From assembly GCA_965224465.1 (NCBI GenBank), contig OZ245049.1:2970001-3002000 (forward strand): a stretch of DNA of 32,000 nt, read 5' to 3'. The translations under genes were made by a program, and so were the position numbers. Shown in pieces: positions 315 through 31,358 of this stretch. Each line of letters begins with the position of its first letter. Within the stretch, counting starts at the first letter, position 1. The DNA is from Flavobacteriaceae bacterium (GTDB lineage: Bacteria; Bacteroidota; Bacteroidia; Flavobacteriales; Flavobacteriaceae). The notes beneath the pieces are model-generated. The model did no database searches, was not told the origin of the DNA, and saw only the letters and a list, made by a program, of their open reading frames with translations.

Positions 315-405
315 ATACCAAAATTCTTTTCCAAGTTTCGCTTTAGAAATAGAATTATATTTTGTTTTAACAAGGCTAAAAATGGAAGGATAGCCTTAGT
401 TAACG
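315..405 (+). repeat. MITE-like dispersed element, 5' partial copy
   Basis: ataccaaaattcttttccaag...aatggaaggatagccttagtt aligns with the 5' two thirds of the ~160-bp unit at 17452-17611, 20737-21057 and (reverse) 31168-31321. Homology stops at ~405, exactly where an amidase-domain reading frame starts. Confidence 0.7.
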
Positions 406-727
406 TCCTGGGTGTTCATATTTTGTAAACTGGGTAATAGAAAAATCAAATAATAAAGGAACCAAAAGCGCAAGGTCTTTAGATTGGTTAATTTGAGGCA
501 AAAAGATATCTGAGCCAGTATACGGTGCAATTGCTGTTAAAACTAGAAAAGGAGGAGGTTATGTTGGATTTGTTTTTGCTAAAAAGGGAAATAATGGGAT
601 TATAATTTTGGGAGGAAACCAAACGGATGAACTAAAAAAATCTTCATATAAAAATAAATCAATATTCACTTATTTTGTACCTCTTAATTACAATATTGAT
701 AACACCAATCAAAAAAAAGATAAATAA
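404..727 (+). pseudogene. Cassette 0: 5'-truncated TIGR02594-like (NlpC/P60 superfamily) peptidoglycan amidase domain with in-frame TGA
   Basis: Hand translation gives RPGCSYFVNWVIEKSNNKGTKSARSLDWLI*GKKISEPVYGAIAVKTRKGGGYVGFVFAKKGNNGIIILGGNQTDELKK...NYNIDNTNQKKDK*. The Cys motif (C..FVNW), the SA.S..W motif and the GGNQ motif are typical of the family. TGA lies at 494-496. The expected catalytic His in GGGHVGF reads Y here. Confidence 0.7.
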
Positions 728-1421
728 GATACTAAAAACAGGTGAAATTCAAAACAAAAAAATTGAACTTTCCAAAATTGACTATGAAGATTTACCTGCT
801 AAAATTAAACCTAGTAAAAATTTTATAAGTGCTTTAAAATGGAAAGATTTAAATGGTGAGAATTATCTTATTATTTATAGAGTTGGTCCAACTGTTGAAA
901 CTGATATTATTGACACGGACGATGAAAAGTATGCTGAGCTTCATGTTAAACAATACGTTTTTCAAAATAAAAATTATACTAAGATATGGGAAGTAATTGA
1001 TTTTGTTCGGAATTGTGCTTATGATTTATGGATTGGACCCGCTTCAAAGGATGCTTTTTATGTCACAGATTTAAATAATAATGGAATAACAGAAACTAGT
1101 TTTATTTATTATTTATCATGTAGAAGCGACGCATCTCCTTCTATAATGAAATTAATAATGAGAGAAGGAAATCAAAAATTTGCTTTGCGAGGAACTTCTA
1201 TTTTAAATAGATATTTAATCGATATAGACTTAGAAAATTTCAATCCCAAATTAAATAAAAATTTGGTAGGGAATAATAATGGTTCGACTTCATTTTTATT
1301 AAAAACTATGGGTAAATATGAAAATGATGAAGATTTTTGTAAGAATCCTAAATTGTTAGAGTTTGCTAAAGAAAAATGGATTGAAAATATGATAGAAAAA
1401 GAGATGAAACAATTTAAATAA
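675..1421 (+). CDS. Hypothetical protein, positional immunity candidate for cassette 0 (start codon uncertain)
   Basis: 248-codon ORF from the track. It has no in-frame ATG or GTG near the 5' end, only TTG at 675 and 696. It overlaps the end of the amidase fragment and stops at 1419-1421. I recognise no domain with certainty. Confidence 0.5.
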   Translation: MYLLITILITPIKKKINKILKTGEIQNKKIELSKIDYEDLPAKIKPSKNFISALKWKDLNGENYLIIYRVGPTVETDIIDTDDEKYAELHVKQYVFQNKNYTKIWEVIDFVRNCAYDLWIGPASKDAFYVTDLNNNGITETSFIYYLSCRSDASPSIMKLIMREGNQKFALRGTSILNRYLIDIDLENFNPKLNKNLVGNNNGSTSFLLKTMGKYENDEDFCKNPKLLEFAKEKWIENMIEKEMKQFK

Positions 1422-2139
1422 AAAAGGTCTGTTTTTGGGATAAAATCCATTCAGGAGATTTAGTAGCAGCATCCAAACGCAGACAATCGTATGTTGATAC
1501 CAACCGAAAATATACACCTATTTTCAGATTTACAGATATCAAAACCGATGAAGAAATAGCATTAGGAAAAAAGATTGATGCCGCAGAAGTAAAACGAATT
1601 AAAAGGAAGTTCCCCAAAGATTCTAATGTATATCATTTTTATCCGATTTTATTTTTAGAACAGATGAAGATGATATGTGGTAATGGTCGTGCTCCTTGGA
1701 TGTAAACAGCTATTGAGGAGTCTAAAAAAGTAAAAGGTTGTGTAGAAAGTTTAGAGCCTATGTATTCAATGGTAAAAAAATATTTAAGATTTGTAGGAAA
1801 TAAATCTGAGCCAACGGATGGAATTTATGGTCCGTGGTGTGCTTCTTTTATGAATTGGTGTCTAAATGAAAGTGGATATAAATATACGAAAAGCGCAAGT
1901 TCTTTAGTACCTGTTTATCAGAATTACAAAGCTCTGTTTAAAAAAATATTGAACCTATTTATGGTTGTATTGTTGTTTATAAGCATAAAACTAAATGGAA
2001 AGGACAGACTGGTTTTCTATACGGGTTAGATAAAGATGGAAATTATTTATTACTTGTAGGAAATCAAGGAAATACGATAAATATTGAAAAGTAAGGTGAA
2101 TATACTAGTAGGTCTAAAAGTTCTACCAAAACCACGTAA
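1416..2139 (+). pseudogene. Cassette 1: 5'-truncated linker plus TIGR02594-like amidase domain (stop, frameshift, stop)
   Basis: Same sequence as cassette 2 (2764-3487). Disruptions are TAA at 1703-1705, the A7 tract at 1940-1946 and TAA at 2092-2094. The linker is cut at 1416, directly after the stop of the upstream ORF. Confidence 0.7.
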
Positions 2140-2141
2140 AT

Positions 2142-2448
2142 ATGAAAAAAATAATTCTATATATATATCTATTTATTACATTAGGTTGTAAAAATGTTTC
2201 AAACTCTAATATTCAACGTATAATTACAGAAACAAAAGGAATTGAGAAAACAAATGTAAATTGTTTAACTGAATCTGATAAAATAGAAGTAGAAAAGGTA
2301 ATTGCGAATATTATAAATAGTATAGAAAATGATGACGAAGATTCGATATCTTCTATTTTAAATTTTCCTATATCAATTTTTAACTTTTCTTTTGATAATC
2401 AAGCTGGTTTTATTACTGAGTGGAATAAAAGCGAAGAATTAAAAAATT
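2142..2448 (+). pseudogene. Lipoprotein immunity candidate, 3'-truncated by an ISL3 remnant
   Basis: Identical to the first ~102 codons of 3490-3996 (MKKIILYIYLFITLGC lipobox). Identity ends at 2448, where an IS terminal repeat begins. The tail of track ORF 2142-2534 is IS-derived read-through. Confidence 0.75.
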
Positions 2449-2669
2449 GGTTCTACCACGATTTGTGTGGGTATAAATCTAAACCTCCATTAAAAAACAG
2501 TATTGCACTTCTAAAATTCACGAAAGTCCTGTAGCCTTTACCAATAGATTTTATTTCTTGTATTTTACCATTTAGTCTTTCTGCCATTGCATTAGAAGCA
2601 GTCTCAACCATTGCATTACACACCCCTTCTATATGGTTATTAAACATCCTAGCAACCTTTATAATTTCT
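2449..2669 (-). mobile_element. ISL3-family IS remnant (terminal inverted repeat plus C-terminal ~64 codons of the transposase)
   Basis: Minus ORF 2453-2647 reads ...SNAMAERLNGKIQEIKSIGKGYRTFVNFRSAILFFNGGLDLYPHKSW*. This resembles the conserved C-terminus of ISL3 transposases (N.KIK..KR...G.R.F.NFR.RIL). The terminal sequence ggttctaccacgatttgtgtggg contains the stop codon. Confidence 0.6.
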
Positions 2670-2675
2670 TTAATT

Positions 2676-3487
2676 CTAAATTGGATAAAGGAAGAGGAAG
2701 ATCCAGATCAACAGCAAGAATTAGAAGCTCAACGAGACGATAAAGTGGAAGTTTTAAAAGATAAAATAAAAAAGGTCTGTTTTTGGGATAAAATCCATTC
2801 AGGAGATTTAGTAGCAGCATCCAAACGCAGACAATCGTATGTTGATACCAACCGAAAATATACACCTATTTTCAGATTTACAGATATCAAAACCGATGAA
2901 GAAATAGCATTAGGAAAAAAGATTGATGCCGCAGAAGTAAAACGAATTAAAAGGAAGTTCCCCAAAGATTCTAATGTATATCATTTTTATCCGATTTTAT
3001 TTTTAGAACAGATGAAGATGATATGTGGTAATGGTCGTGCTCCTTGGATGTAAACAGCTATTGAGGAGTCTAAAAAAGTAAAAGGTTGTGTAGAAAGTTT
3101 AGAGCCTATGTATTCAATGGTAAAAAAATATTTAAGATTTGTAGGAAATAAATCTGAGCCAACGGATGGAATTTATGGTCCGTGGTGTGCTTCTTTTATG
3201 AATTGGTGTCTAAATGAAAGTGGATATAAATATACGAAAAGCGCAAGTTCTTTAGTACCTGTTTATCAGAATTACAAAGCTCTGTTTAAAAAAATATTGA
3301 ACCTATTTATGGTTGTATTGTTGTTTATAAGCATAAAACTAAATGGAAAGGACAGACTGGTTTTCTATACGGGTTAGATAAAGATGGAAATTATTTATTA
3401 CTTGTAGGAAATCAAGGAAATACGATAAATATTGAAAAGTAAGGTGAATATACTAGTAGGTCTAAAAGTTCTACCAAAACCACGTAA
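2676..3487 (+). pseudogene. Cassette 2: conserved linker plus TIGR02594-like amidase domain (stop, frameshift, stop)
   Basis: Reads LNWIKEEEDPDQQQELEAQRDDKVEVLKDKIKKVCFWDKIHSGDLVAASKRRQSYVDTNRKYTPIFRFTDIKTDEEIALGKKIDAAEVKRIKRKFPKDSNVYHFYPILFLEQMKMICGNGRAPWM*TAIEESKKVKGCVESLEPMYSMVKKYLRFVGNKSEPTDGIYGPWCASFMNWCLNESGYKYTKSASSL...KK. After a frameshift at A7 (3288-3294) it continues NIEPIYGCIVVYKHKTKWKGQTGFLYGLDKDGNYLLLVGNQGNTINIEK*GEYTSRSKSSTKTT*. There is no start codon at the 5' end. Confidence 0.75.
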
Positions 3488-3796
3488 ATATGAAAAAAAT
3501 AATTCTATATATATATCTATTTATTACATTAGGTTGTAAAAATGTTTCAAACTCTAATATTCAACGTATAATTACAGAAACAAAAGGAATTGAGAAAACA
3601 AATGTAAATTGTTTAACTGAATCTGATAAAATAGAAGTAGAAAAGGTAATTGCGAATATTATAAATAGTATAGAAAATGATGACGAAGATTCGATATCTT
3701 CTATTTTAAATTTTCCTATATCAATTTTTAACTTTTCTTTTGATAATCAAGCTGGTTTTATTACTGAGTGGAATAAAAGCGAAGAATTAAAAAATT
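2764..3796. repeat. Direct duplication, copy B
   Basis: See copy A (1416-2448). Confidence 0.9.
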
Positions 3797-3996
3797 ATAT
3801 ATCTCTTGATATTTATAATGAAAATGATGAATATATAGGGAAGACAAATAGCGATTCTGTTAAAATTATATTCTTTCCTTCTGAAAAAACGGATAATTGT
3901 TTAAAAGTACAATTTGGTATTGGTAGTGGATTGATTTTTACTTTAGATAAAATTGATGAGAAAATAAAAATAGTAAAATTTGATATAGCGGGTTAA
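3490..3996 (+). CDS. Lipoprotein, immunity candidate for the cassette 1/2 amidase
   Basis: 168-aa ORF. Its ATG lies 2 nt after the amidase stop. Signal peptide with lipobox LFITLGC. It has no similarity to the ORFs following the other cassettes. Confidence 0.7.
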   Translation: MKKIILYIYLFITLGCKNVSNSNIQRIITETKGIEKTNVNCLTESDKIEVEKVIANIINSIENDDEDSISSILNFPISIFNFSFDNQAGFITEWNKSEELKNYISLDIYNENDEYIGKTNSDSVKIIFFPSEKTDNCLKVQFGIGSGLIFTLDKIDEKIKIVKFDIAG

Positions 3997-4038
3997 ATTA
4001 TTTGTAAAAAACATGTCAACTTTAGATTAATTTAATAA

Positions 4039-4563
4039 CTAAATTGGATAAAGGAAGAGGAAGATCCAGATCAACAGCAAGAATTAGAAGCTCAACGAGA
4101 CGATAAAGTGGAAGTTTTAAAAGATAAAATAAAAAATGTATGTTTTTGGGATAAAATCCATTCAGGAGATTTAGTACCAGCATCCAAACGCAGACAAACG
4201 TATGTTGATACCAACCGAAAATATACACCAGCAGCAAGATCATGGAGTCCAAAAGGAAACTATGAATTTTATTGGGGAAATGGTAAAAAAAGTGAATTTC
4301 CATTCTTCCGAGCAATAGCTATGATAAATTGGAAAGGTGGCGGGCAACATACAGCTTTTGTTATTGGAGAAACTAAACAAGGTCGTATAGCAATTTTAGG
4401 AGGTAATTAAGGTAAGCATGCTGGTGGTATAACTCAATCGAGTGCCTCTAAAAGTAAAGTCCAGTTTTACATGTATCCTAAAGGATATAAAATACCAAAT
4501 TCTTTTTATGAATTACCTGTTAGAGATATAAAAAACAAATTAACATATACAAACACTCATTAA
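4039..4563 (+). pseudogene. Cassette 3: linker fused by internal deletion to the C-terminal half of a divergent TIGR02594-like amidase; in-frame TAA
   Basis: The linker is nearly identical to 2676-2870 up to TNRKYTP. It then jumps to AARSWSPKGNYEFYWGNGKKSEFPFFRAIAMINWKGGGQHTAFVIGETKQGRIAILGGN*GKHAGG...VQFYMYPKGYKIPNSFYELPV...*. TAA at 4408-4410 sits where Q of the GGNQ motif is expected. The Cys-containing half is absent. Confidence 0.75.
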
Positions 4564-4565
4564 TT

Positions 4566-4889
4566 ATGAAACTTATTAGACTGGTATCTATTATTTTAGT
4601 TATTTTTTTTTATTCTTGTAAAAAAACAAGGAATACTAAACAAGACTCTACTATTCAAAATAGTTATCAAAAAAAAGAAGTGAATAATGATAATATAGAT
4701 ACGAAGAAAGATTGTGTGATTTATAGCGATAGTATTAAAATAAAAAAATTTATTTCAATTGTCAAAATAGATTTATTTCAAATGGATATAATCAATTTTG
4801 GAAAGAAATATAATTTAAAAAGAAATATACACAAGAAAGATAAAATTACTTTATTAAACGCTAAGCCCGAGTTATATTTCGAAAAATAA
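4566..4889 (+). CDS. Small lipoprotein, immunity candidate for cassette 3 (possibly truncated by a nonsense codon)
   Basis: ATG lies 2 nt after the cassette 3 stop. Signal peptide with lipobox VIFFYSC. After TAA at 4887-4889 the same frame stays open for 49 more codons, to 5037-5039. Confidence 0.65.
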   Translation: MKLIRLVSIILVIFFYSCKKTRNTKQDSTIQNSYQKKEVNNDNIDTKKDCVIYSDSIKIKKFISIVKIDLFQMDIINFGKKYNLKRNIHKKDKITLLNAKPELYFEK

Positions 4890-5065
4890 AAAGGTGGCTG
4901 TCTAACAACATTTATATATTTCAATTATAATTTTTATAAGAATAAAAGTAAAGATAGTTGGAAAGGAGAACATCAAACAATAATGATGATAGATAAAATA
5001 GGGGATGATTTTAGAATTAAAGATATTAATCATTTTTAAAAGTTGTACTACCAAAAGGTACAAGA

Positions 5066-5431
5066 GTAGAAGTAAAACGAATCAAAAGGAAGTTCCCCAA
5101 AGATTCTAATGTGTATCATTCTCACCCGATTTCATTTGTGGAACAGATGAAGATGATATGTGGAGGAAAAGAGGATAGTAATATTTAAATCACAAGGAAA
5201 AGGTCCAAGTTGTAACACTTACTGTAGATATATTCTAAAACAATTAAATTTAACACCACATGGAGGAAACAGTACTTTTTTACTAATTGAACAGTTGGTA
5301 GTTTTTTACAACAAAACTAAGTGGCACTGTTTGACCATAATCGGTGGCACAAATAGAACCGTGGTAGCCAGTGACCGAGCGAAGTTCTCGTGTGTACGAT
5401 GGTGTGAGAGGCGCCTGCCAGCTAAGCTAGT
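5066..5431 (+). pseudogene. Cassette 4: partial linker plus the start of a different toxin domain; frameshifted and 3'-truncated at the IS256 boundary
   Basis: VEVKRIKRKFPKDSNVYHSHPISFVEQMKMICGG matches the cassette 1/2 linker end. That frame stops at 5186-5188. The next frame (track ORF 5160-5441) continues as EEKRIVIFKSQGKGPSCNTYCRYILKQLNLTPHGG... and runs into the IS256 terminal repeat. Confidence 0.5.
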
Positions 5432-5472
5432 GGTTGTGTAATTTAAACTCTGTCTGCTTGTTTTTTTCTACG

Positions 5473-5532
5473 TTTTAAAATAGTTCGATTTTCTCTTCAT
5501 AAGGCTGCTTTAAAAATCGAACTATTTTAAAA
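5473..5532 (-). terminator. 19-bp-stem hairpin just downstream of the IS256 transposase stop
   Basis: ttttaaaatagttcgattt (5473-5491) pairs perfectly with aaatcgaactattttaaaa (5514-5532), with a 22-nt loop. There is no separate U-tract, so the terminator role is an inference. Confidence 0.4.
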
Positions 5533-5551
5533 TGAGCCCCAGCGGCTAGCG

Positions 5552-6784
5552 TCACGAACTGCTTCCGTTTTTATGTAAATCCAACGTTATTCGATCTTCA
5601 AATTTAATATATAATTGTTGAATTGTCAAGCACCAATTATGTAAAGGGTTTGTCCATTTTTTTTCGATATTTTTTGTTGCTAAGTAAACAAGCTTCAATA
5701 GTGCCATATCACTGGTAAAAGCCCCTTTTGTTTTAGTTACTTTTCTTACCTGTCTATGAAAACCTTCTACTGCATTTGTTGTGTAAATTATTTTTCTGAT
5801 AGGTTCTGTATACTGAAAAAACTGAGATAACTCTTCCCAATTACGGTTCCAGCTTTCTAAAACTACAGGGTATTTTTCTCCCCATTTTTCTTCTAATTTC
5901 AATAACTCCAACTCAGCAATATCTTTATTAACTGCCTTGTAAACAAGCTTTAAATCTCGAATAAATTCTTTTTGATCTTTGGAAGCTATATACTTTAAAG
6001 AATTACGAATTTGATGAACAATACACTTTTGAATTTGTGTTTTAGGAAATACACTCAAGATAGCTTCTGAAAATCCTTTTAAGTTGTCTGTACAGGCAAT
6101 TAGGATATCCTTAAGCCCTCTGTTATTAAGGTCTGTCAATACTTGAAGCCAAAAATTTGCGCCTTCACTTTCTGAAATATACATTCCTAAAACCTCTTTT
6201 ATCCCTTCTTTATTTACTCCTAAAACATTGTAAAGTGCTTTGTGTTGTATTTTACCGTCTACTTTTACCTTGTAATGCATAGCGTCAAGCCAAACAATGC
6301 AGTACATCTGTTCTACTGGACGACTTTGCCATTGTTTTATATCGGGTATGATCTTATCTGTAATTTGACTTAAAACAGTGTGTGATATATCTGTATCATA
6401 CATCTCTTTTATATGACCAGAAATATCGCGTAAGCTCATTCCTAAGCCATATAATCCAATGATCTTATCTGATAAATTATCTGCTAAAATGGTTTGACGC
6501 TTTTTTATCAGAACAGGCTCGAAACTACTATTTCTATCCGCTGGCGTACTTATTTCAAAACTACCAATACTAGTTTTAACAGTCTTTTTGCCCTTTCCGT
6601 TACGTTTATTCCCTTTAGAACGTTCCTCTTCACTAAGGTGTGATTCCATTTCTGCTTCCAATGCTTTCTCAAGAAATTGTTTCATTAAAGGAGCAAAGGC
6701 ACCTTCTTTTCCGAATAAACTTTTTCCTGATAATAATTGATCCAATGCCTTTTTTTCAATGTTGGCTAACTCGTCTTTTGTCAT
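5552..6784 (-). CDS. IS256-family (mutator-type) transposase
   Basis: 410-aa ORF with typical IS256/Transposase_mut features: ...IVWLDAMHYKV..., ...ACTDNLKGF..., ...CIVHQIRNSLKY..., ...TTNAVEGFHRQVRKVTK... Confidence 0.9.
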   Translation of the reverse strand: MTKDELANIEKKALDQLLSGKSLFGKEGAFAPLMKQFLEKALEAEMESHLSEEERSKGNKRNGKGKKTVKTSIGSFEISTPADRNSSFEPVLIKKRQTILADNLSDKIIGLYGLGMSLRDISGHIKEMYDTDISHTVLSQITDKIIPDIKQWQSRPVEQMYCIVWLDAMHYKVKVDGKIQHKALYNVLGVNKEGIKEVLGMYISESEGANFWLQVLTDLNNRGLKDILIACTDNLKGFSEAILSVFPKTQIQKCIVHQIRNSLKYIASKDQKEFIRDLKLVYKAVNKDIAELELLKLEEKWGEKYPVVLESWNRNWEELSQFFQYTEPIRKIIYTTNAVEGFHRQVRKVTKTKGAFTSDMALLKLVYLATKNIEKKWTNPLHNWCLTIQQLYIKFEDRITLDLHKNGSSS

Positions 6785-6860
6785 GTTTTCTGTTTGAATA
6801 AAGTTAATACTTTTTTTTATTCAGACAGAGTTGAGTTTACAGTCCCTTATGAGTGTATGC

Positions 6861-7096
6861 TTTTTAATTTTAAGGAACTCTAAAATGTTTAGATGTGCCT
6901 GTAAGTATTCAGTACTAAGCTAAATCTTATTAAATTTTCCTTTTATCTCTTGAATTATTGAAATATATTCGTTTCTTAGCATGTTTTGTACTTTCTTGTT
7001 TGCACTTAAAAGTACAATAAAACCAAGGGGTTACCTTGGTTTTCATGCTATTTATTTTTACTTAAACACCTGTAAATGATGGGTGCGAAACTTGAG
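6861..7096 (-). mobile_element. Truncated second copy of the IS4-like element (left end and first ~40 codons only)
   Basis: The reverse complement of 6861-7096 aligns with 18956-19190. The terminal repeat ctcaagtttcgcac and ~110 nt of leader are nearly identical. The transposase start then follows as MLRNEYISIIQEIKGKFNKI*LSTEYLQAHLNILEF. Homology ends at ~6861, 14 nt from the IS256 end. Confidence 0.8.
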
Positions 7097-7105
7097 TGAT
7101 TAAAT

Positions 7106-7624
7106 TCATATAGTAGAAACTCCAGGAAAGTAACCGCGTTTCATCTTATATCTTTTTTTTGAATCGTATTTTTTACTTGGAATAAATTGATAATCAAAAG
7201 CATAGCATTTATTAGACTCTAAATATTTTATTTTCAGAAGCATATCTATATTTAACGAGTTCAGGTTTTCGTAATTTCTAAACTGATGTTCAATACCTGA
7301 ATCACTAATGTGAACTTCTTTTTTGTGCGATAAACTTTTCAAAACCCTACCAATAGTATCTGGTGAATAAACTTTTAAATTTGGAATTTGAAGAAAGTGT
7401 AATTTTAAATGCTTTCCGATATCCTCTGCAGAATCTCCACCAGCTAAAAATAGCATCCAAATTTTTTTTATAATATCAGAATAACTAAATTCAGAATGTA
7501 AAGCTCTCTGACCAAGCTGTTTCTTAACCAAATAAACGAATTCAATATTGTTAAATATTTCGACTATATAATTTATTTCGACGTATGCACTTATGTTTTC
7601 TGTAGTTGTTGTAGTTTTGGACGG
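7106..7624 (-). pseudogene. IS1380-family transposase, N-terminal fragment
   Basis: ...SEFSYSDIIKKIWMLFLAGGDSAEDIGKHLK...YSPDTIGRVLKSL...KRGYFPGVSTI matches my recollection of the IS1380 N-terminal region (YSysD...GGd.lEDi...SpdTi.R.l..L...GY.P). There is no ATG. The frame is open from 7624. The ORF ends 9 nt before the IS4-like end at 7096. Confidence 0.5.
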
Positions 7625-7759
7625 TCAGGGTTTTTACCAAATTTGGTAAAAATAATTAAAAAAGAAAAGTCTTGTAGCTATTGTTTTTACAGGAATTTCC
7701 GATTCTTTTAAAATTAGACCTGCGGAGTTATGGTAATAATTAATAAAAAAACAAAAAGT

Positions 7760-8098
7760 ATGGAACAAAGTAAAATAGACATTTTTGTAGCAACAATGAA
7801 TGATAAATTCCCATCAACAAATATGATGTCAGTTCGTTCACAATTGGAAAAATTAGATGACAGTAAATTTGGATTACTACAATCTTTAAATTACAAAAAT
7901 CCGACAACATTATTAATTGTATCTCTTTTCTTGGGAGGTTTTGGTGTTGACAGGTTTATGCTTGGTCAAACAGGATTAGGTGTTTTTAAATTATTGACTT
8001 GTGGAGGTCTTGGTATTTGGACAATAGTAGATTGGTTTACAATTATGGAAAAGACAAAAGAAATGAATTTCAAACTATTTATGGAAAATGCACATTAA
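7760..8098 (+). CDS. TM2 domain-containing membrane protein
   Basis: [18 protein letters not shown]...[38 protein letters not shown] is the TM2 domain signature. I chose the internal ATG at 7760 rather than 7730 because family members usually start this way. Confidence 0.8.
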
Positions 8099-8480
8099 TT
8101 ATAAATTGAAATACCTTGGCGTCATCTTGTTGTTGATTTCGGGGTATTTCTTTCTTTATAATTTTTCAGGGGTAATAAAAGGAATTCCTATTTGTATTTT
8201 TAAAAGTGTGACTGGTATTCCTTGTCCTGCTTGTGGCTCGACAAGGGCAACTTTACAGTTATTTCAAGGTAATTTTTGGACTTCAATTTTAATCAATCCT
8301 TTTGGAATTTTGACAAATATATTGATAATTGTTTCTGTTTTTTGGATGATAATTGATGTTATAAAAAAGAAAGAGACATTTTTGCCGTTTTTACATAAAA
8401 ATTGGCATATTAGGATTAAGACTTTTATCCTGTTAATTGTATTAGCTAATTGGTTTTGGAATATACAAAAAGGGCTATAA
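8088..8480 (+). CDS. DUF2752 domain-containing membrane protein
   Basis: The CPACGSTRA motif followed by hydrophobic helices. It overlaps the TM2 gene by 11 nt, and this pair is commonly co-located. Confidence 0.8.
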
Positions 8481-8531
8481 CGCTAGAACGTAAAATAAAC
8501 TATTTATATCGGTTCTTTTGGATTGTAATTG
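8479..8531 (+). repeat. MITE-like element, 3' partial copy
   Basis: aacgctagaacgtaaaataaactatttatatcggttcttttggattgtaattg matches the 3' third of the unit. It starts within the stop codon of the DUF2752 gene. Confidence 0.7.
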
Positions 8532-8709
8532 AAGAGTAAATGTATACTTTATTTCTTTAAAAAACGATGATGCCATGCTTCACAGAATGCCGAATAATTC
8601 AATAAATAAAGGGACAATAGGGACTAAAAGCTGTATAGATCCTAATTTAAAAAAGGGATATAGCGTTTTTAACAATAAAGAGGAGTGGATTAAAAAAAGT
8701 GACAGCTAT

Positions 8710-8868
8710 TTAAAACAACTGAGAAGCCTTATTTAATAGTTTTGGAGGTAGTTCTACTGTTTCAATGGTATCCTTTTCAAAAGCATCATGAATGCTGTCT
8801 ACAGCCACAACCACACCAATGGCAAAGATGACTAGAAATAAAATAATTATTTTAAACAAGCGTTTCAT
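8710..8868 (-). CDS. Small membrane-anchored hypothetical protein
   Basis: MKRLFKIIILFLVIFAIGVVVAV... has one N-terminal TM helix. It lies 64 nt downstream of the lipid kinase gene on the same strand. It is short, so uncertain. Confidence 0.4.
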   Translation of the reverse strand: MKRLFKIIILFLVIFAIGVVVAVDSIHDAFEKDTIETVELPPKLLNKASQLF

Positions 8869-8932
8869 AAAGTAGACGTTTATATAAAAGACGCTCAATT
8901 TTAACAAATGTTACATAAAAATTAAGATTTCT

Positions 8933-9856
8933 TTAACTTTTTACAAAAGGAACTATAAATTGAAGGGCTTTTGGACGTATTTCAATGTTAAAACTACCCG
9001 TACCTATCAATTCTCCATCTGCTTGTATATAGGCAATTGACCGATCTAAAACAGTTATTTTTAAGCGGTCAGTTTTATAGTTTTCAACAAAGTCTTTTTC
9101 TACTATTTTTCCGTTAAATAAGTTGGAAAGGTTACTTAATAATTGAAAAAATGTAATATTCTCTACGCTCGATACATCAAATAAACCATCTGTAGGGTTA
9201 GCATGTTGCGTCAGTTGCATTCCACCTGCCGAATATTTACACAATCCTATCAAAAACAACAGCGATGTTTTATAGATGGTTTTTCCGTTAAATTCAATAG
9301 CTAATTTACTTTTTTTATAGCCAACCAAACTCACAATAGCACCCGCTAAATAGGCTAAAAAACCCAGTTTTTTAAATGCATTTACCTTATTCACCACATG
9401 ACCATCCAATCCAATGCCAGCAATGTTGTTAAAGTACACTTCTTGTTGGCTGTTTTCTAATGTAATAAAACCAATATCTTGTAAAATACTATGGCAGTTT
9501 TTTAATACTTGAATTGCATTTTTATACTCCTTTTCTATGCCGTAGGTTTTTATCCAATCGTTCCCTGTTCCGAGGGGAATAATTCCTAATTTTACTTGAG
9601 AAATAGGATATGTACTCGTCATTAAACCGTTTACTACATTATGTAAAGTACCATCTCCTCCTACACAAATAATATGAGTATAGCCAGTTGCAATGGCTTC
9701 TTTTACTAGGATGCTTTCGTGTGATTTATATTCAGAAAATGTAACTTTAAAATCAAATTTTTGATGCTTGAGTTCTTTTTCTATTTCATGCCATTTCTGA
9801 GCAGTTTTACCGTTACCAGCAACAGGGTTTACAATTACAAACCATTGAATCTCCAT
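8933..9856 (-). CDS. Diacylglycerol/lipid kinase family protein (YegS/BmrU type)
   Basis: VNPVAGNGK..., GGDGTLHNVVNGL and PLGTGNDW motifs of the DAGK catalytic domain. Confidence 0.85.
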   Translation of the reverse strand: MEIQWFVIVNPVAGNGKTAQKWHEIEKELKHQKFDFKVTFSEYKSHESILVKEAIATGYTHIICVGGDGTLHNVVNGLMTSTYPISQVKLGIIPLGTGNDWIKTYGIEKEYKNAIQVLKNCHSILQDIGFITLENSQQEVYFNNIAGIGLDGHVVNKVNAFKKLGFLAYLAGAIVSLVGYKKSKLAIEFNGKTIYKTSLLFLIGLCKYSAGGMQLTQHANPTDGLFDVSSVENITFFQLLSNLSNLFNGKIVEKDFVENYKTDRLKITVLDRSIAYIQADGELIGTGSFNIEIRPKALQFIVPFVKS

Positions 9857-10074
9857 TTACATTTTTTTTATGAGCGTCGCAAAATACAATTACTAACTTT
9901 AGATTAACGTATGTTTAAACATTTATTTACAAATGTTACAAAATATGTAAAATGGATACTTTTTATAATTGCCTGATTATATGTTTATTGACTAGTTCTT
10001 GTTTGTAATAAAAAGCACGAAGTATTTATATAAAATTTTAAATGCGTATTTTTACTGTGAATAAGTAAAAAATT

Positions 10075-12291
10075 ATGTCAAGAAAAAATAAAGTATTCAA
10101 GAAAAAAGGAAAAGTAATTAAAGATTTAACAAGAAAAATACTCCGTATATTCAATAATAATCCATCAACATTATATAACTATAAGCAAATTGCTTCAAAA
10201 ATAAAAGTGACGGATACAGACGGCCGCAATCAAATTATTAAAAAACTAGCTGCTTTAAAAAAAGAGGAGAAACTCGAAGAAGCAGATCGTGGTAAGTTTA
10301 AATTAATAGCAGCCACTAAACATGTAATAGGTACTATAGATTTAACCTCTAATGGAAACGCCTATTTGATAAGTGATGAAACAGAAAATGATGTGTACAT
10401 ACCATCTCGTAATTTGAATCATGCATTGGATGGAGATACCGTAAAAGTATATACATATAGCCGTAGAAAAAACAAAAAATTAGAAGGGGATGTGGTAGAA
10501 ATCATAGAACGTTCTAAAGATAAATTTGTAGGAGTTTTACAACTAAATAAAAAGTTTGGTTTTGTAGTCCCAGCAAACTTTAAAATGTATACTGATATAT
10601 TTATCCCAGAAAATAAGCTTTCGACCGCTCAAGATGGAGATAAAGTATTAGTACATATGACAGATTGGCCTCAGAATTCTAAAAATCCGTTTGGTGAAAT
10701 TATAGAAGTTTTAGGAAAACCAGGAGATCATAATACAGAAATTCATTCTATATTGGTTGAATACGATTTACCGTATAAATTTTCAGAAGAAGTAGAAGCG
10801 TTTGCGAATTCCATCTCTTTAGAAATTACCGAAGAAGAAATAGCAAAACGTAGGGATATGCGTAAAGATTTAACCTTTACCATAGATCCAAAAGATGCCA
10901 AGGATTTTGATGATGCCTTGTCGTTTACAGAATTAGAAAATGGAAACTACGAAATAGGAATTCACATTGCAGATGTATCGCATTATGTACAAGAAAACAC
11001 CATTTTAGAAGAAGAGGCTTATGAAAGAGCTACTTCTGTTTATTTGGTGGATAGAGTGGTGCCTATGTTGCCAGAAATGCTCTCCAATGGTGCATGTTCT
11101 TTAAGACCAAACGAAGAAAAATTAACTTTTTCTGCGGTGTTTGAAATAGATAAAAAAGCCCATGTTATCAACCAATGGTTTGGACGTACAGTTACCTATT
11201 CGGATCAGCGTTTTGCCTACGAAGAAGCACAAGCAATTATAGAAAAAAACGAAGAAGGTGCATTTGAAATGCCAGAAGATATTTCTATCACAGATGGCGC
11301 ATATACCGTTTCTCCAGGAATAGTGAAAGCCACCTTAACGCTAGATGTGTTGGCAAAAAAAATGAGAGAACGCCGCCTAAAACAAGGAGCTATTACTTTT
11401 GATAGAGTAGAAGTGAAGTTTAACCTAGATGAAGAAGCAAATCCAATAGGTGTATTCTTTAAAGAAAGCAAGGATGCAAATAAACTGATTGAAGAGTTTA
11501 TGCTATTGGCAAATAAGAAAGTAGCAGAATTTATTGGACGTAAAAAAGGAGGAACACCTACAAAAGACACCTTTATATACCGTGTGCATGATGAGCCAAA
11601 TATAGAAAAATTACAATCTCTACAAACCATTGTAAGTAAATTTGGATACAGTATAAACACTCAGGATAAACAATCTATTTCACAATCTTTGAACAAATTA
11701 TTGAGCGATGTTCATGGAAAAGGAGAAGCCAATATGATTGAAACGTTGGCTGTACGTACCATGAGTAAAGCGGTATATACAACAGAAAATATTGGACATT
11801 ACGGATTGGCATTTGATTATTACAGTCATTTTACATCGCCTATTCGTAGGTATCCAGATGTGATGACGCATCGTTTGTTACAGCATTATTTGGAAGGTGG
11901 AAAATCGCCTAACCCAGCCATTTATGAAGAAAAATGTAAGCATGCATCGGAACGTGAATATTTAGCATCCAGAGCAGAACGTGACTCTATCAAATACATG
12001 CAAATTAAATACATGCAAGATCAAGAAGATAAAGAATTTGAAGGGGTGGTTTCTGGAGTAACTGAGTGGGGTATTTATGTAGAAATTATAGAAAATAAAT
12101 GTGAAGGAATGATCAGAACACGTGATTTAAAAGATGATTTTTATATTTATGATGAGAGCCAGTACGCCATGGTAGGACAATCTACAAAAAAGGTGATTCA
12201 ATTAGGAGACACTATTATTGTAACCGTGAAAAAAACAGATTTAGAACGCAAGCATTTAGATTTTAATATGATTAAAAATTTAGGTAAATAA
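10075..12291 (+). CDS. rnr: Ribonuclease R
   Basis: 738 aa. N-terminal HTH/cold-shock-like region, RNB domain (TIDPKDAKDFDDAL, HYGL...YSHFTSPIRRYPD) and a C-terminal S1 domain (FEGVVSGVTEWGIYVEI). Confidence 0.92.
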   Translation: MSRKNKVFKKKGKVIKDLTRKILRIFNNNPSTLYNYKQIASKIKVTDTDGRNQIIKKLAALKKEEKLEEADRGKFKLIAATKHVIGTIDLTSNGNAYLISDETENDVYIPSRNLNHALDGDTVKVYTYSRRKNKKLEGDVVEIIERSKDKFVGVLQLNKKFGFVVPANFKMYTDIFIPENKLSTAQDGDKVLVHMTDWPQNSKNPFGEIIEVLGKPGDHNTEIHSILVEYDLPYKFSEEVEAFANSISLEITEEEIAKRRDMRKDLTFTIDPKDAKDFDDALSFTELENGNYEIGIHIADVSHYVQENTILEEEAYERATSVYLVDRVVPMLPEMLSNGACSLRPNEEKLTFSAVFEIDKKAHVINQWFGRTVTYSDQRFAYEEAQAIIEKNEEGAFEMPEDISITDGAYTVSPGIVKATLTLDVLAKKMRERRLKQGAITFDRVEVKFNLDEEANPIGVFFKESKDANKLIEEFMLLANKKVAEFIGRKKGGTPTKDTFIYRVHDEPNIEKLQSLQTIVSKFGYSINTQDKQSISQSLNKLLSDVHGKGEANMIETLAVRTMSKAVYTTENIGHYGLAFDYYSHFTSPIRRYPDVMTHRLLQHYLEGGKSPNPAIYEEKCKHASEREYLASRAERDSIKYMQIKYMQDQEDKEFEGVVSGVTEWGIYVEIIENKCEGMIRTRDLKDDFYIYDESQYAMVGQSTKKVIQLGDTIIVTVKKTDLERKHLDFNMIKNLGK

Positions 12292-12324
12292 ATAGTGGAA
12301 TAGTTATTGTAAACTAGCTAATCA

Positions 12325-12354
12325 TTCTGTTTTTTATTTTAATAAAAAACAGAA
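12325..12354 (+). terminator. AT-rich hairpin after rnr
   Basis: ttctgtttttt (12325-12335) pairs with aaaaaacagaa (12344-12354), with an 8-nt loop. Confidence 0.4.
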
Positions 12355-12387
12355 ATAGAAGCTAAAATAATCAATAAATAAAATCAA

Positions 12388-13062
12388 ATGAAAAAACTTA
12401 CTTTTTTATTCTTGTTCGTCAGTACGGTATTGTTTGCACAAGAACCAACGATAAAAAAAATAGGAGATTTTAATACACTTAAAGTGTTTAATGGACTCAC
12501 TATTAATTTAATAGAAGCTGAAAACCCTAGTATTCAATTGTTTGGAGAAAAAGCAGGGAATGTGGTGTATAAAAATGTGAATGGTCTGCTAAAAATTTCT
12601 TTGGATTTTTCTGAAAGCTTTAGTGCAAAAGATGTTTCTGTAACCGTTTATTACACCAATAAATTACATACAATAGATGCCAATGAAGCTTGTTTAGTAC
12701 AATCTTCCGATGTTTTAGAAAGACAAAACATTGAGCTGAGAGTGCAGGAAGGTGCTCATATAGCATTGGAAGTTAAAGCGAAATACTTAACATTAAAAGC
12801 TGTTTCTGGTGGCGTGTTAGAAATTACCGGTACAACAGTTAACCAAAGTGTAGAAGTAACTACGGGAGGTGTTTATGAAGGACTTAATTTAATATCTGTT
12901 CATACCGATGTTACTTGTGGAACAGGTGGACAAGTAGGAATTTATGTTTCTGAAGACCTGGATGCAAAGGTGCGATTTGGCGGCGTTGTAAAATACAAAG
13001 GAAATCCTACGACACTAAAAAAGAATAAATTTTTAGGTGGTAAAATTAAGGTCTATGAATAA
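12388..13062 (+). CDS. DUF2807 / head GIN domain-containing protein (secreted)
   Basis: Signal peptide MKKLTFLFLFVSTVLFAQ. Repetitive beta-rich body: FNTLKVFNGLTINL..., GGVLEITG..., VRFGGVVKYKGNP. Confidence 0.7.
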   Translation: MKKLTFLFLFVSTVLFAQEPTIKKIGDFNTLKVFNGLTINLIEAENPSIQLFGEKAGNVVYKNVNGLLKISLDFSESFSAKDVSVTVYYTNKLHTIDANEACLVQSSDVLERQNIELRVQEGAHIALEVKAKYLTLKAVSGGVLEITGTTVNQSVEVTTGGVYEGLNLISVHTDVTCGTGGQVGIYVSEDLDAKVRFGGVVKYKGNPTTLKKNKFLGGKIKVYE

Positions 13063-13558
13063 TAATTTTAGGACTCTTAACCCTACGATTTTAAAGATAG
13101 AAGATAAAAAACTAATAGGACAGACGCTTAAAATGAGTTTGTTACATAATAAAACCACTGCCTTATGGCGTGGTTTTATGCCTATTAGCCATCTGATAGA
13201 GTATTCTCTTAGCACCGATTTGTTTTCTTTGCAGGTATATCCTTTGGATTATTTCTCTGATTTTTCTCCTAAAAAAGAATTTGTAAAATGGGCGGCCTTG
13301 GAGGTTTCACAAATTGATAATATACCATCAAATATGCAGTCTTTTATACTCGTTGGAGGGATGTATGCTGTATTTGACTATAAAGGGTCTAGTGAAAATA
13401 ATGCAATTTTTGAAGCTATTTTTAGCGATTGGCTTCCAAACTCCGATTATCAATTAGATCATAGACCTCATTTTGAACGGTTAGGTAAAAACTATAAAAA
13501 TAAGGATGAAAATTCTCAAGAACAGATTTGGATTCCAATAAAAAAAACTAAAAATTAA
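13055..13558 (+). CDS. GyrI-like small-molecule-binding domain protein
   Basis: ...KKLIGQTLKMSL...ALWRGFMP...VYP...WAALEV...GGMYAVFDYKG...IF..WLPNSDYQLDHRPHFERLG. ATG at 13055 overlaps the upstream stop and is preferred over GTG at 13037. Confidence 0.7.
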   Translation: MNNNFRTLNPTILKIEDKKLIGQTLKMSLLHNKTTALWRGFMPISHLIEYSLSTDLFSLQVYPLDYFSDFSPKKEFVKWAALEVSQIDNIPSNMQSFILVGGMYAVFDYKGSSENNAIFEAIFSDWLPNSDYQLDHRPHFERLGKNYKNKDENSQEQIWIPIKKTKN

Positions 13559-13566
13559 AAGACCTC

Positions 13567-15240: not shown

Positions 15241-15321
15241 ATTACCTATAATCAAAGAAATATTACTGGTAATCTTATGTTAAGGAGGCTATTATTATTA
15301 GTGACATATTGATTTTATTAC

Positions 15322-15329
15322 TATCTTTG
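15322..15329 (+). promoter_or_regulatory. Bacteroidota -7 box (TAnnTTTG) upstream of tatA
   Basis: tatctttg lies 21 nt upstream of the ATG at 15351. No well-spaced -33 TTG was seen. Confidence 0.4.
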
Positions 15330-15350
15330 TTGCCTAAATAAGAAATAAAA

Positions 15351-15554
15351 ATGAATACACTTACTATATTTTTAGCATTACCAGGACCTTTATCAATGGC
15401 ATTAATTGCTGGTGCTATAATTTTATTATTTGGAGGAAGAAAAATTCCGGAACTAATGAAAGGAATTGGTGGGGGTATTAAGGAGTTCAAAAAAGCAACT
15501 CAGGACGATGATGAAGAGCAAAAGGAAGATGTTAAAAAAGTAGATAAAAAATAA
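15351..15554 (+). CDS. tatA: Twin-arginine translocase subunit TatA/E
   Basis: ...ALIAGAIILLFGGRKIPELMKGIGGGIKEFKKA followed by an acidic tail. Confidence 0.9.
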   Translation: MNTLTIFLALPGPLSMALIAGAIILLFGGRKIPELMKGIGGGIKEFKKATQDDDEEQKEDVKKVDKK

Positions 15555-15571
15555 GAATTTTTCAATCATAT

Positions 15572-15607
15572 AAAAAAGCCTATTTCAATTTAGAAATAGG
15601 CTTTTCT
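15572..15607 (+). terminator. Intrinsic terminator of tatA
   Basis: aagcctatttc / gaaataggctt form an 11-bp stem with a 6-nt loop, followed by ttc tta t. Confidence 0.7.
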
Positions 15608-15613
15608 TATGTA

Positions 15614-15659
15614 ATACCAAGTACATTTCCAAGTGATGGTTTAGAAATGCATTTGGTAT
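15614..15659 (+). repeat. MITE-like element, miniature copy (5' arm plus opposing terminal repeat)
   Basis: ataccaagtacatttccaagtgatggtttagaaatgcatttggtat. Termini ataccaagtacat and atgcatttggtat are inverted repeats. Confidence 0.65.
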
Positions 15660-15671
15660 TTAAAGCTTCCT

Positions 15672-18948: not shown

Positions 18949-18955
18949 TTATCTA
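18949..18955. repeat. Target site duplication (left) ttatcta
   Basis: An identical 7-mer occurs at 20528-20534, directly outside the two IS terminal repeats. Confidence 0.85.
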
Positions 18956-31321: not shown

Positions 31322-31358
31322 ATAGGACATAAGGGAGCCAGAAATAAAGATTAAATAG

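Follow-up and report, generated by a model that had tools for sequence, protein, structure and literature searches.

A stranded, decaying array of amidase-toxin and immunity cassettes in a Flavobacteriaceae genome, likely derived from the 3' end of a WHIX-class T6SS effector locus

Nucleases and other toxins with cytoplasmic action make up most of the Rhs and CDI repertoire, and the orphan copies of these systems carry the junction motifs VENN or PxxxxDPxGL. Orphan toxin-immunity arrays of Rhs and CDI (CdiA-CT/CdiI) were reportedly described by Poole et al. in 2011 and by Koskiniemi et al. in 2014. Auxiliary T6SS clusters of Vibrio cholerae are reported to undergo effector displacement and to hold arrays of immunity genes (PMC5361080), and in gut Bacteroidales protection from the toxins of non-kin cells can come from orphan immunity genes (PMC12247911, PMC10470768). 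WHIX effectors (Fridman et al., PLoS Biol 2025, PMC12135965; preprint 10.1101/2024.08.21.608442) are defined by the motif WHxxxH and carry peptidoglycan-targeting C-terminal domains (PMC12135965). Enterobacterales, Burkholderiales, Pseudomonadales, Aeromonadales and Vibrionales are named in that paper, and no Bacteroidota genus appears in its text or in part of its supplements (PMC12135965).

We analysed a window, meaning the whole stretch of 32,000 nt, from a Flavobacteriaceae bacterium (GCA_965224465.1, OZ245049.1, positions 2,970,001-3,002,000, forward strand), in which the plus-strand modules of an array span 404 to about 5290. This region is likely a stranded, decaying orphan array that derives from the 3' end of a WHIX-class T6SS effector locus. 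It is a known kind of structure, mostly decayed, and the evidence supports its reading as leftover toxin/immunity cassettes of a polymorphic toxin. The amidase payload and the assignment to Flavobacteriaceae, both pointed out in the initial annotation, hold; the genome is from a marine member of the family. The five cassettes counted there do form an array, but cassettes 1 and 2 are not independent of each other; since they are an exact 1035-bp duplicate, the array contains only four different cassettes of head plus immunity gene, with one present twice. The features are as follows.

314-406, no strand: left boundary, a dispersed repeat unit of ~90 bp directly adjoining the truncated 5' end of cassette 0
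404-727, plus: cassette 0 toxin A, C-terminal two-thirds of a TIGR02594 amidase, pseudogene (TIGR02594, 82.9 bits)
675-1421, plus: I0, immunity-family ORF after toxin A (NF046077, 138.7 bits)
1416-1681, plus: cassette 1 linker fragment, ends EQMKMICG (profile positions 65-145, E = 4.8e-26; 100% identical to 2764-3029)
1682-2139, plus: cassette 1 toxin B pseudogene, exact copy of 3030-3487
2142-2450, plus: immunity gene B, truncated copy (first 103 codons), identical to 3490-3798 and then interrupted
2451-2656, minus: ISL3-family transposase remnant, C-terminal 64 codons (DDE_Tnp_ISL3, E = 1.5e-9; NF033550, E = 4e-9)
2657-3029, plus: cassette 2 linker, longest copy (profile positions 33-145, E = 1.8e-38)
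3030-3487, plus: cassette 2 toxin B, TIGR02594 amidase pseudogene (65.8 bits), which shares 71% identity with the C-terminal part of the intact effector of locus L050
3490-3996, plus: immunity gene B (I2), intact 168-aa lipoprotein ORF, 61% identical to the L050 partner
4020-4230, plus: cassette 3 linker, lacking its second half (profile positions 37-98, E = 1.5e-18)
4231-4563, plus: cassette 3 toxin C, the third TIGR02594 amidase, preserved only in its C-terminal half (26.8 bits, profile positions 72-130)
4566-4889, plus: I3, intact 107-aa lipoprotein-like ORF with an FFYSC signal, 2 nt after the toxin C stop
5009-5164, plus: cassette 4 linker, last part, ends HSHPISFVEQMKMICG (profile positions 114-145, E = 3.9e-13)
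5165-5290, plus: cassette 4 toxin D, beginning of another type of C-terminal domain (KED...FKSQGKG.xC) that aligns with P0025
5437-6841, minus: right boundary, intact IS256-family element (transposase 5552-6784, NF033543, 395.9 bits)

A linker profile found four copies in the window (1418-1675, 2670-3023, 4045-4230 and 5063-5158; E = 4e-13 to 2e-38), and linker homologues correspond to residues ~670-790 of full-length proteins. The linker, which had been called unassignable to any delivery family, is by profile homology the stretch of ~110 residues that closes the carrier region of WHIX-class T6SS effectors at its C-terminal side, just ahead of the toxin. The full-length effectors that contain it are ~950-1400 aa long and come from marine Bacteroidota. 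We compared 46 non-redundant related loci, 36 of which have a full N-terminus. In all 36 full-length loci a PAAR gene lies directly upstream, VgrG is present in 21, and the ORFs upstream of related loci include TssN (4) and TssC (2). Relatives show the gene order VgrG, PAAR, effector, lipoprotein. The full-length genes which the initial annotation proposed to search for do exist, downstream lipoproteins recur behind them and the amidase fragments match TIGR02594. T6SS delivery of the Bacteroidota family members is suggested by this gene neighbourhood together with homology to WHIX.

The carrier comprises a bipartite WHIX domain (WHGGIH motif), SH3-like and EF-hand-like stretches and a pre-toxin stretch ending FP..VYHFHPIAFVE(Q/H)MK(L/M)I. 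With the carrier-family profile, we obtained matches to proteobacterial proteins (E = 1e-27 to 1e-37) whose accession numbers appear in the WHIX tree of PMC12135965. The match between carrier and WHIX is bipartite (profile positions ~20-180 and ~300-360); at the level of sequence, the carrier of the full-length effectors is WHIX. The swappable heads that come after the carrier in relatives are TIGR02594/CHAP, M23, PG_binding_1 with M15, YkuD, DUF5675, muramidase and GH19, and the heads of the effector family are predicted to target the cell wall.

Like the effectors of PMC12135965, the parents of the cassettes combine a bipartite N-terminal domain bearing WHxxxH with polymorphic peptidoglycan-targeting heads (NlpC/P60, GH19, muramidase, lysozyme), a signal-peptide gene downstream, and VgrG and PAAR genes nearby. 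However, the Bacteroidota proteins are longer, with insertions, the SH3-like/EF-hand-like stretches and a junction motif of their own, HFHPIAFVE; they adjoin T6SSiii-type genes such as TssN, and PAAR is always their immediate upstream neighbour. PMC12135965 does not describe arrays of heads truncated at the 5' end, and the window itself lacks the WHIX domain and has just the final 32-113 residues ahead of the toxin. The same amidase family occurs as a VgrG-linked T6SS payload in Stenotrophomonas; in the portions of those reports considered here (PMC13055248, PMC13340143), the N-terminal parts are LysM repeats or others rather than a WHIX carrier, and orphan arrays are not reported.

Among the 46 related loci, 22 contain orphan junction copies (39 in total; 5'-truncated and downstream), in which the linker start varies. 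The orphan toxin-immunity layout recognised in the initial annotation is the one that follows full-length genes elsewhere. As in Rhs/CDI arrays, the 5'-truncated toxin fragments keep a conserved piece upstream of a sharp junction (HFHPIAFVEQMKxI in the WHIX-linked family), an immunity gene comes after each fragment, and the fragments lie one after another on the same strand, 3' of a full-length gene. In contrast to those systems, the WHIX-linked carrier is unrelated, without YD/Rhs repeats or filamentous haemagglutinin repeats, the payloads would act on the cell wall in the periplasm, and in the window the parent is missing and the toxins are dead. In the mechanism we propose, the carrier would load the effector onto the spike, the head would cut the target cell wall, and the lipoprotein would protect the producer's periplasm. 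Homologous recombination via the retained pre-toxin stretch would let heads enter and leave the expressed gene. In the relatives, old heads are kept downstream as 5'-truncated copies in which part of that stretch is still present.

All three variable domains read as TIGR02594-like amidases in the initial annotation matched this family with the scores listed above (cassettes 0, 1/2 and 3). Cassette 0 is truncated inside the amidase and has neither a linker nor the N-terminal part. The match of toxin A covers profile positions 41-131 and exceeds the cutoff of 70.55 bits; an in-frame TGA occurs at 494-496, and the conserved His of GHV.F is replaced by Tyr (GYVGF). In the window, I0 lacks both an ATG and the lipobox Cys, and its N-terminus is probably degraded. 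Its homologues are lipoproteins encoded directly 3' of WHIX effectors (L030, 11460-12506; L033, 12416-13429), and the effector with the head closest to toxins A and C is trailed by an I0-like lipoprotein.

The duplicate copies of cassettes 1 and 2 (1416-2450 and 2764-3798, 100% identical) are split by a 206-bp ISL3 transposase remnant. The cassette 2 linker proper (2676-3029, LNWIKEEED...EQMKMICG) shows 53% identity to the full-length effector P0003 (residues 668-779), and its junction motif has decayed to HFYPILFLE from the near-invariant HFHPIAFVE. Relative to L050, toxin B carries two TAA stops, one in place of Glu (3051-3053) and one in place of Tyr (3440-3442), a frameshift near 3292-3298 and a deletion of ~43 residues near the end; the catalytic His is changed to Gln (WKGQTGF versus WKGHTGF). 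In L050, the counterpart of I2 is a lipoprotein gene 4 nt 3' of the toxin, and by their identity to this adjacent pair (71% and 61%) toxin B and I2 are assigned as a toxin/immunity pair. The L050 protein (1008 aa) is a DUF4280 (PAAR-like) fused effector of Bacteroidota that retains the last nine junction residues, AFVEHMKLL; its N-terminal scaffold differs entirely, and upstream of these residues the WHIX and linker profiles found no match.

The cassette 3 linker shares 94-96% nucleotide identity with 2657-2866, and half a linker is fused to half an amidase where NRKYTP meets AARSW. The half of toxin C bearing the catalytic Cys is absent, and the Gln codon of GGNQ has become TAA (4408-4410). 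From its position and FFYSC signal, I3 is presumed to be the immunity gene to toxin C; no I3 homologue was found in the related loci compared. Cassette 4 keeps only the final ~32 linker residues (78-92% nucleotide identity with 2870-3028). That it opens a different domain, as had been proposed, agrees with the alignment of toxin D to the C-terminal domain of P0025 beyond the junction (E = 2e-16; support to about 5249). Toxin D has a frameshift near 5186, is truncated, and gave no match in Pfam or NCBIfam.

The view that a linker heads each module fits cassettes 1 and 2; cassette 0 has none, cassette 3 the first half and cassette 4 the last residues only. The downstream ATG 2 nt after the toxin stop was found at all three sites claimed (2137-2139/2142, 3485-3487/3490 and 4561-4563/4566), and two downstream ORF types are indeed lipoprotein-like, as seen in the N-termini of the ORFs at 3490 and 4566 and likewise in the homologues found elsewhere. 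The modules had been described as lacking start codons; however, GTG inside the linker (2745, 4108) gives callable ORFs, which are annotated publicly as P0001 and P0002. Sigma-70-like matches were below chance (26 versus 32.5 expected), and the plus strand of the array has a single Bacteroidetes -7 motif, TAnnTTTG, at 603.

The array is bordered by the dispersed repeat on the left, with further copies at 17452-17541, 20741-20826, 20903-20988 and 31243-31322 (81-84% identical), and by insertion sequences on the right, where the IS256-family element has 20-nt inverted repeats at 5437-5456 and 6822-6841. A profile search for WHIX, PAAR and VgrG gave no match anywhere in the window, in agreement with the earlier statement that the parent is absent from it. 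A parent gene may sit just outside, beyond the 90-bp repeat.

Each toxin copy in the window has been disabled by one or more lesions (premature stops, a frameshift, deletions, a missing catalytic His/Cys), and we infer that the array no longer donates toxins. The initial annotation expected such cassettes to recombine into a full-length parent. A live reservoir, in which cassettes swap into an expressed parent and change the toxin/immunity type of the strain, would fit the layout seen behind intact parents in the 22 related loci, the 93-94% nucleotide identity that parent and orphans of L001 share over ~470-500 nt of pre-toxin stretch up to the junction, the 94-100% identity of the window's linker copies to one another, and the use of the effector family by the same genome (P0060, P0129, P0028). 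Yet each head has at least one lesion and several have more, the catalytic His being lost in A and B and the Cys in C, so that a swap would install a dead toxin. The sole full-length family member found in the genome shows 25% protein identity in the linker, too low for homologous recombination to be feasible, and among called proteins the linker subtype was found in no other protein of a 5.8-billion-protein collection, GTDB representative genomes (one per species) or JGI metagenomes. Since all toxin copies are inactivated and a compatible parent was not found in these searches, a working recombination reservoir is unlikely. An origin of the amidase fragments as phage or prophage lysis-gene remnants rather than secretion-system toxins is extremely improbable: TIGR02594 annotations exist for phage genomes of Aeromonas and Pseudomonas, and mobile-element scars surround the region, but the stretch fused to the fragments is otherwise confined to the end of effectors linked to PAAR/VgrG, the lipoprotein genes after the fragments pair with the same toxin elsewhere, and phage structural, holin and integrase genes were not found in the window.

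It is possible, if tentative, that the region persists chiefly as an islet of orphan immunity genes, comparable to the acquired interbacterial defence clusters of gut Bacteroidales; the lipoprotein genes would be what selection acts on, and the toxin fragments would be hitch-hiking debris. This reading overlaps that of a decaying orphan array. Among the array's ORFs, I2 and I3 alone are intact, in contrast to the toxins, all of which are broken; homologues of I2 (48-61% identity) adjoin T6SS genes in two other contexts, including L049 (a gene in the lipoprotein run behind TssD, 49% identical), and in L033 the effector is trailed by several lipoprotein genes in a row that have no toxins with them. 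Orphan immunity genes have precedents (PMC12247911, PMC10470768); in V. cholerae (PMC5361080) and gut Bacteroidales, old immunity genes and sometimes effector remnants pile up downstream of the current T6SS effector, though effector families and hosts are different. On the other hand, one copy of the I2 gene is truncated by the IS remnant, I0 has lost start codon and lipobox, a search for promoter-like motifs ahead of I2 and I3 gave none, and frames of 107 and 168 codons can stay intact for a while without selection. Judged by their intact reading frames, I2 and I3 might, at most, still protect against neighbours firing matching amidases. Finally, a collapsed or mis-joined repeat can resemble 1035 bp at 100% identity, in which case three and a half cassettes would remain. 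Such an assembly artefact is very unlikely given the distinct specific junctions of the two copies (the I0 end versus the ISL3 remnant and a longer linker) and a source sequence that is a single 5.24-Mb contig, and it would leave the identity of the region unchanged.

The initial annotation had described a plus-strand array of orphan toxin/immunity cassettes, each with a linker (the stretch preceding the toxin), a toxin domain or head, and a downstream ORF. This observation was essentially right, and its interpretation is supported by the present analysis. The array and the elements adjoining it are composed as follows (toxins are lettered A to D; I0, I2 and I3 are downstream ORFs).

Features of the cassette array and its right border
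404-727, plus strand: cassette 0 (toxin A), an amidase domain reduced to its C-terminal two-thirds and interrupted by an in-frame TGA (494-496)
675-1421, plus strand: I0, the ORF after cassette 0, which overlaps that cassette and has no ATG
1416-2450, plus strand: cassette 1 (toxin B), beginning mid-linker at the stop of I0; an amidase pseudogene, then the first 103 codons of a lipoprotein gene
2451-2656, minus strand: remnant (206 bp) of an ISL3-family transposase gene (Pfam, E = 1.5e-9), splitting the lipoprotein gene of cassette 1
2657-3996, plus strand: cassette 2 (toxin B), with the longest linker (2676-3029), the same amidase pseudogene as cassette 1 and a complete 168-codon lipoprotein gene at 3490-3996 (I2)
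4020-4889, plus strand: cassette 3 (toxin C), first half of the linker, fused between NRKYTP and AARSW to what remains of a third amidase, its C-terminal half; then a 107-codon lipoprotein-like ORF (I3)
5009 to ~5290, plus strand: cassette 4 (toxin D), last ~32 residues of the linker and the frameshifted start of another domain
5437-6841: intact IS256 element with inverted repeats; further insertion-sequence fragments lie beyond

Cassettes 1 and 2 duplicate each other exactly, with 100% identity between 1416-2450 and 2764-3798 over 1035 bp; reading this duplicate as an assembly artefact was considered and rejected. The linker half of cassette 3 shares 94-96% nucleotide identity with the linker of cassette 2. 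Linker copies begin at profile positions 65, 33, 37 and 114 and end at EQMKMICG, after which three unrelated heads follow; the fragments are 5'-truncated, conserved up to a sharp junction and divergent beyond it, as in an orphan array. The previously noted 2-nt gap between the toxin stop and the downstream ATG is exact in cassettes 1, 2 and 3. Scans of the array for sigma-70 and TAnnTTTG promoters gave matches at or below chance, and Rfam matched neither the array nor the G+C-rich stretch 5291-5436. A tblastn extension of the full-length effector P0003 into 2592-2675 was judged spurious because the sequence there is the ISL3 remnant read on its antisense strand.

Three of the variable domains had been described as divergent amidases of the TIGR02594-like NlpC/P60 type, and their motifs indeed match TIGR02594. 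Against the curated NCBIfam cutoff of 70.55 bits, toxin A scored above threshold with 82.9 bits, toxin B reached 65.8 bits with its stops masked, and the half-domain of toxin C reached 26.8 bits. An intact homologue of toxin B with 71% identity, encoded at the related locus L050, has a full TIGR02594 domain, and Pfam CHAP gave weak supporting matches to the amidase cassettes. The catalytic Cys (WCxxF) and His (GHVxF) do not occur together in one open frame in toxin A, B or C. Comparison with intact homologues showed that toxin A carries a TGA, is without its N-terminal part and has a Tyr in place of the conserved His. In toxin B, TAA codons replace Glu at 3051-3053 and Tyr at 3440-3442, a frameshift lies near 3292-3298, ~43 residues are deleted, and the conserved His has become Gln (WKGQTGF vs WKGHTGF). 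Toxin C is missing the half with the catalytic Cys and has a TAA inside GGNQ, and toxin D is a frameshifted stub. The array toxins thus carry inactivating lesions, and A, B and C are, as judged from their sequences, TIGR02594 homologues none of which would be a functional member of the family. The toxin D domain had no Pfam or NCBIfam family match; cassette 4 aligns past the junction with the C-terminal domain of the related protein P0025 (E = 2e-16). An origin of the amidase fragments from a phage lysin was considered and rejected. The main outcome for this genome is a corrected annotation: P0001 and P0002, called in the window as small proteins, are fragments left from dead toxin genes.

A word-indexed protein search with the linker returned only these two fragments, and single-linker scans of GTDB representative genome contigs and JGI metagenome contigs gave no match, so that the window linker represents a subtype without a close relative in those collections. 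Exhaustive HMMER searching with the linker found 33 proteins. The full-length relatives are 960-1400 residues long; their linker occupies residues ~670-790, and behind it comes a head of 170-460 residues. Their linker ends in a near-invariant joint, FP..(V/I)(Y/W)HFHPIAFVE(Q/H)MK(L/M)I, beyond which divergence is complete; the joints in the window have drifted from this form to HFYPILFLE and HSHPISFVE. At three full-length members the gene order is VgrG, PAAR, effector, an overlapping small lipoprotein gene, and then truncated copies, each with a lipoprotein gene. Scanning one genome per species yielded 44 further loci, all in marine Bacteroidota: Flavobacteriaceae (Tamlana, Aquimarina, Tenacibaculum, Olleya, Cellulophaga), Marinilabiliales (Saccharicrinis, Labilibaculum, Marinifilum, Geofilum), Cytophagales (Fulvivirga, Xanthovirga) and Saprospiraceae.

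Counted with local profiles over 46 non-redundant loci, a complete N-terminal region is present in 36, in every one of which PAAR lies directly upstream, joined by VgrG in 21. ORFs upstream of the family loci also include TssN (4) and TssC (2), both of them type VI secretion system (T6SS) genes. Orphan arrays recur across the related loci: 22 loci hold 39 extra copies of the junction without an N-terminal region, downstream of a full-length parent, on the same strand and with variable linker starts, and the layout of the copies in the window is the same. At locus L001, nucleotide identity between the parent and both of its orphans is 93-94% over the 470-500 nt that lead up to the joint. Heads of the family and its orphans comprise TIGR02594/CHAP, M23 peptidase, PG_binding_1 with M15, YkuD, DUF5675, N-acetylmuramidase and GH19-like domains, all of them predicted cell-wall enzymes. 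Heads would be swapped by recombination at the joint. On the carrier region, Pfam and NCBIfam gave only sub-threshold matches (M23, SH3_3, EF-hand), and it therefore has no curated model in either collection.

According to Fridman et al. (PMC12135965), WHIX is a bipartite T6SS secretion domain named after its WHxxxH motif; it occurs in polymorphic effectors with peptidoglycan-targeting heads (GH19, endolysin, NlpC/P60, muramidase), the genes downstream of them code for proteins with signal peptides, and VgrG or PAAR genes are close by. In our alignment of full-length relatives, WHGGIH was invariant in the N-terminal region. The full-length profile matched proteobacterial proteins of 750-900 residues (E = 1e-27 to 1e-37) from Cupriavidus, Caballeronia, Paraburkholderia, Ralstonia, Cronobacter, Enterobacter and Pseudomonas, and all six of six accession numbers of such matches are present in the WHIX tree file of PMC12135965. 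The Bacteroidota profile aligned with the proteobacterial proteins in two blocks, at positions ~20-180 and ~300-360, with weaker matches at the linker start and the joint. The full-length relatives therefore have a bipartite N-terminal domain with WHxxxH that is homologous to published WHIX, and the alignments establish homology of the carrier at the sequence level. The initial annotation could not assign the linker to any delivery family; the bipartite match to published WHIX proteins, together with the weaker linker and joint matches, now places it where the carrier region of WHIX-class effectors ends. The N-terminal (WHIX) profile had no match in the whole 32-kb window, where linker fragments alone matched, and the cassettes are 3' fragments of WHIX-class genes, not WHIX effectors. 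From their homology and gene neighbours, the Bacteroidota members would be delivered by a T6SS. PMC12135965 reports WHIX-mediated, T6SS-dependent secretion as shown experimentally for Aeromonas and Vibrio proteins only, and neither its text nor the available parts of its supplements mention Bacteroidota genera, although such proteins may already be counted there.

In full-length relatives (residues ~40-115 and ~330), the first WHIX block gave weak matches to Pfam Peptidase_M23 (E ~0.005), and the motifs WHGGIH and xxH(L/I)EVF resemble degenerate M23 HxxxD and HxH sites; WHIX may therefore derive from an M23/LytM fold. The architecture of the Salmonella arizonae effector SARI_02625 (EF-hand, M23-like, endolysin; PMC12992299) looks similar, a likeness drawn from its description only.

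The downstream ORFs had been proposed to be immunity genes. In agreement with this, homologues of I0 and I2 pair with the same toxins or with WHIX effectors and are not unrelated conserved genes: the B/I2 pair is conserved at L050, an A-type head is paired with an I0-like lipoprotein at locus L030, and I3 is assigned to toxin C by position only. Intact immunity-type ORFs of the array are limited to I2 (3490-3996) and I3 (4566-4889), the other I2 copy being cut by the ISL3 remnant. Judged by eye, I2 (LFITLGC) and I3 (FFYSC) have lipoprotein-like N-termini, as do homologues at the related loci L001, L003, L030, L033, L049 and L050. These two small lipoprotein ORFs are candidate immunity genes; I3, for which no homologue was detected in the fetched loci, is presumed from position and signal sequence to confer immunity to toxin C. 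I0 lacks both a start Met and a lipobox Cys and matches NCBIfam NF046077, named "surface polysaccharide biosynthesis protein". However, I0 homologues at L030 (11460-12506) and L033 (12416-13429) are lipoproteins directly behind WHIX effectors with amidase heads, and the family name therefore looks doubtful. Among the fetched loci, toxin C found its best match in the head of the L030 effector, a head that matched toxin A less well. Cassette 4 has no partner ORF because it is truncated.

The pairing of toxin B with I2 is clear from L050 (4181-7732). Here, an intact protein of 1008 residues is 71% identical to toxin B over its last ~195 residues, and a lipoprotein gene 4 nt downstream encodes a product 61% identical to I2. 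The N-terminus of this protein is a DUF4280 (PAAR-like) scaffold, not WHIX, and of the WHIX joint only AFVEHMKLL is retained, pointing to a transfer of this head and its immunity gene between scaffolds at that joint. This suggests that heads are also exchanged at the joint between unrelated T6SS delivery scaffolds. A second I2 homologue (49%) is encoded at L049, behind TssD, among several small lipoprotein genes in a row. At this locus (4493-11635 and 12309-15737), a TssD (Hcp) gene and a gene for a LysM protein precede the lipoprotein run that includes the I2 homologue; a Cas9-like gene (HNH_4, RuvC_III) adjoins these genes on the opposite strand.

The window's housekeeping proteins, P0001 and P0002 all lie on one contig of 5,241,564 bp, whose closest named relatives are Flavobacteriaceae MAGs. 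This contig also encodes a full-length family member, P0060 (1047 residues, GH19-like head), and two N-terminally truncated relatives, P0129 and P0028; the organism therefore uses the effector family. The P0060 linker is 25% identical to that of the window, and no other protein with the window's subtype was found in the protein collection, GTDB representative genomes or JGI metagenomes. P0060, P0129 and P0028, whose linker subtype differs, point to a second, probably active locus of the family. PAAR, VgrG, TssN and TssC genes are absent from the window, and the 400 nt upstream of the array consist of a dispersed repeat and non-coding sequence. The homology of the array fragments to the toxin/effector family is evident from the alignments, and the array itself appears to be a stranded remnant whose only possible residual function would be orphan immunity.

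Following the linker led to a coherent family of ~100 peptidoglycan-hydrolase effectors of marine Bacteroidota, unmodelled in Pfam or NCBIfam, which often retain orphan head/immunity cassettes, and tied this family to the recently defined WHIX secretion domain. We tentatively propose, giving the reading as a whole slightly less than even credence, that the T6SSiii of marine Bacteroidota (Flavobacteriaceae, Marinilabiliales, Cytophagales, Saprospiraceae) is also armed with WHIX-class effectors, which have so far been described in Proteobacteria. In these hosts the effectors would always have PAAR directly 5', and their diversity would come from stacked orphan head/immunity cassettes recombining at the fixed joint HFHPIAFVE(Q/H)MKxI, where heads would also cross delivery scaffolds; the window would be one decayed example of an undescribed system. 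Current ideas are not overturned, and the Bacteroidota branch of WHIX effectors with orphan arrays is a moderately interesting by-product. With the HFHPIAFVE joint as a sequence handle, cell-wall toxins and their immunity genes can be sought in marine Flavobacteriia and the exchange of T6SS payloads can be studied.

Several further elements were observed around the array. A dispersed repeat of ~90 bp occurs in five copies (314-406, 17452-17541, 20741-20826, 20903-20988 and 31243-31322; 81-84% identity, one reversed) and may be a MITE-like or REP-like element; the copy at 314-406 lies exactly at the truncation that forms the left edge of cassette 0. To the right, the G+C-rich stretch 5291-5436, which separates the cassette 4 stub from the inverted repeat of IS256, had no Rfam or protein-family match and no further copy in the window or in the fetched related loci. 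Insertion sequences cluster at 5437-7531 and 18951-20503. The inverted repeats of the intact IS256 measure 20 nt, a perfect hairpin of 20 bp lies at 5473-5532, and an IS1380-like fragment is located at 7106-7531. The segment 6861-7100 is 90% identical, in reversed orientation, to 18951-19191, which flanks a gene for a 477-aa transposase at 19070-20503. The sole RNA gene detected in the window is a tRNA-Cys (GCA) at 26276-26349.
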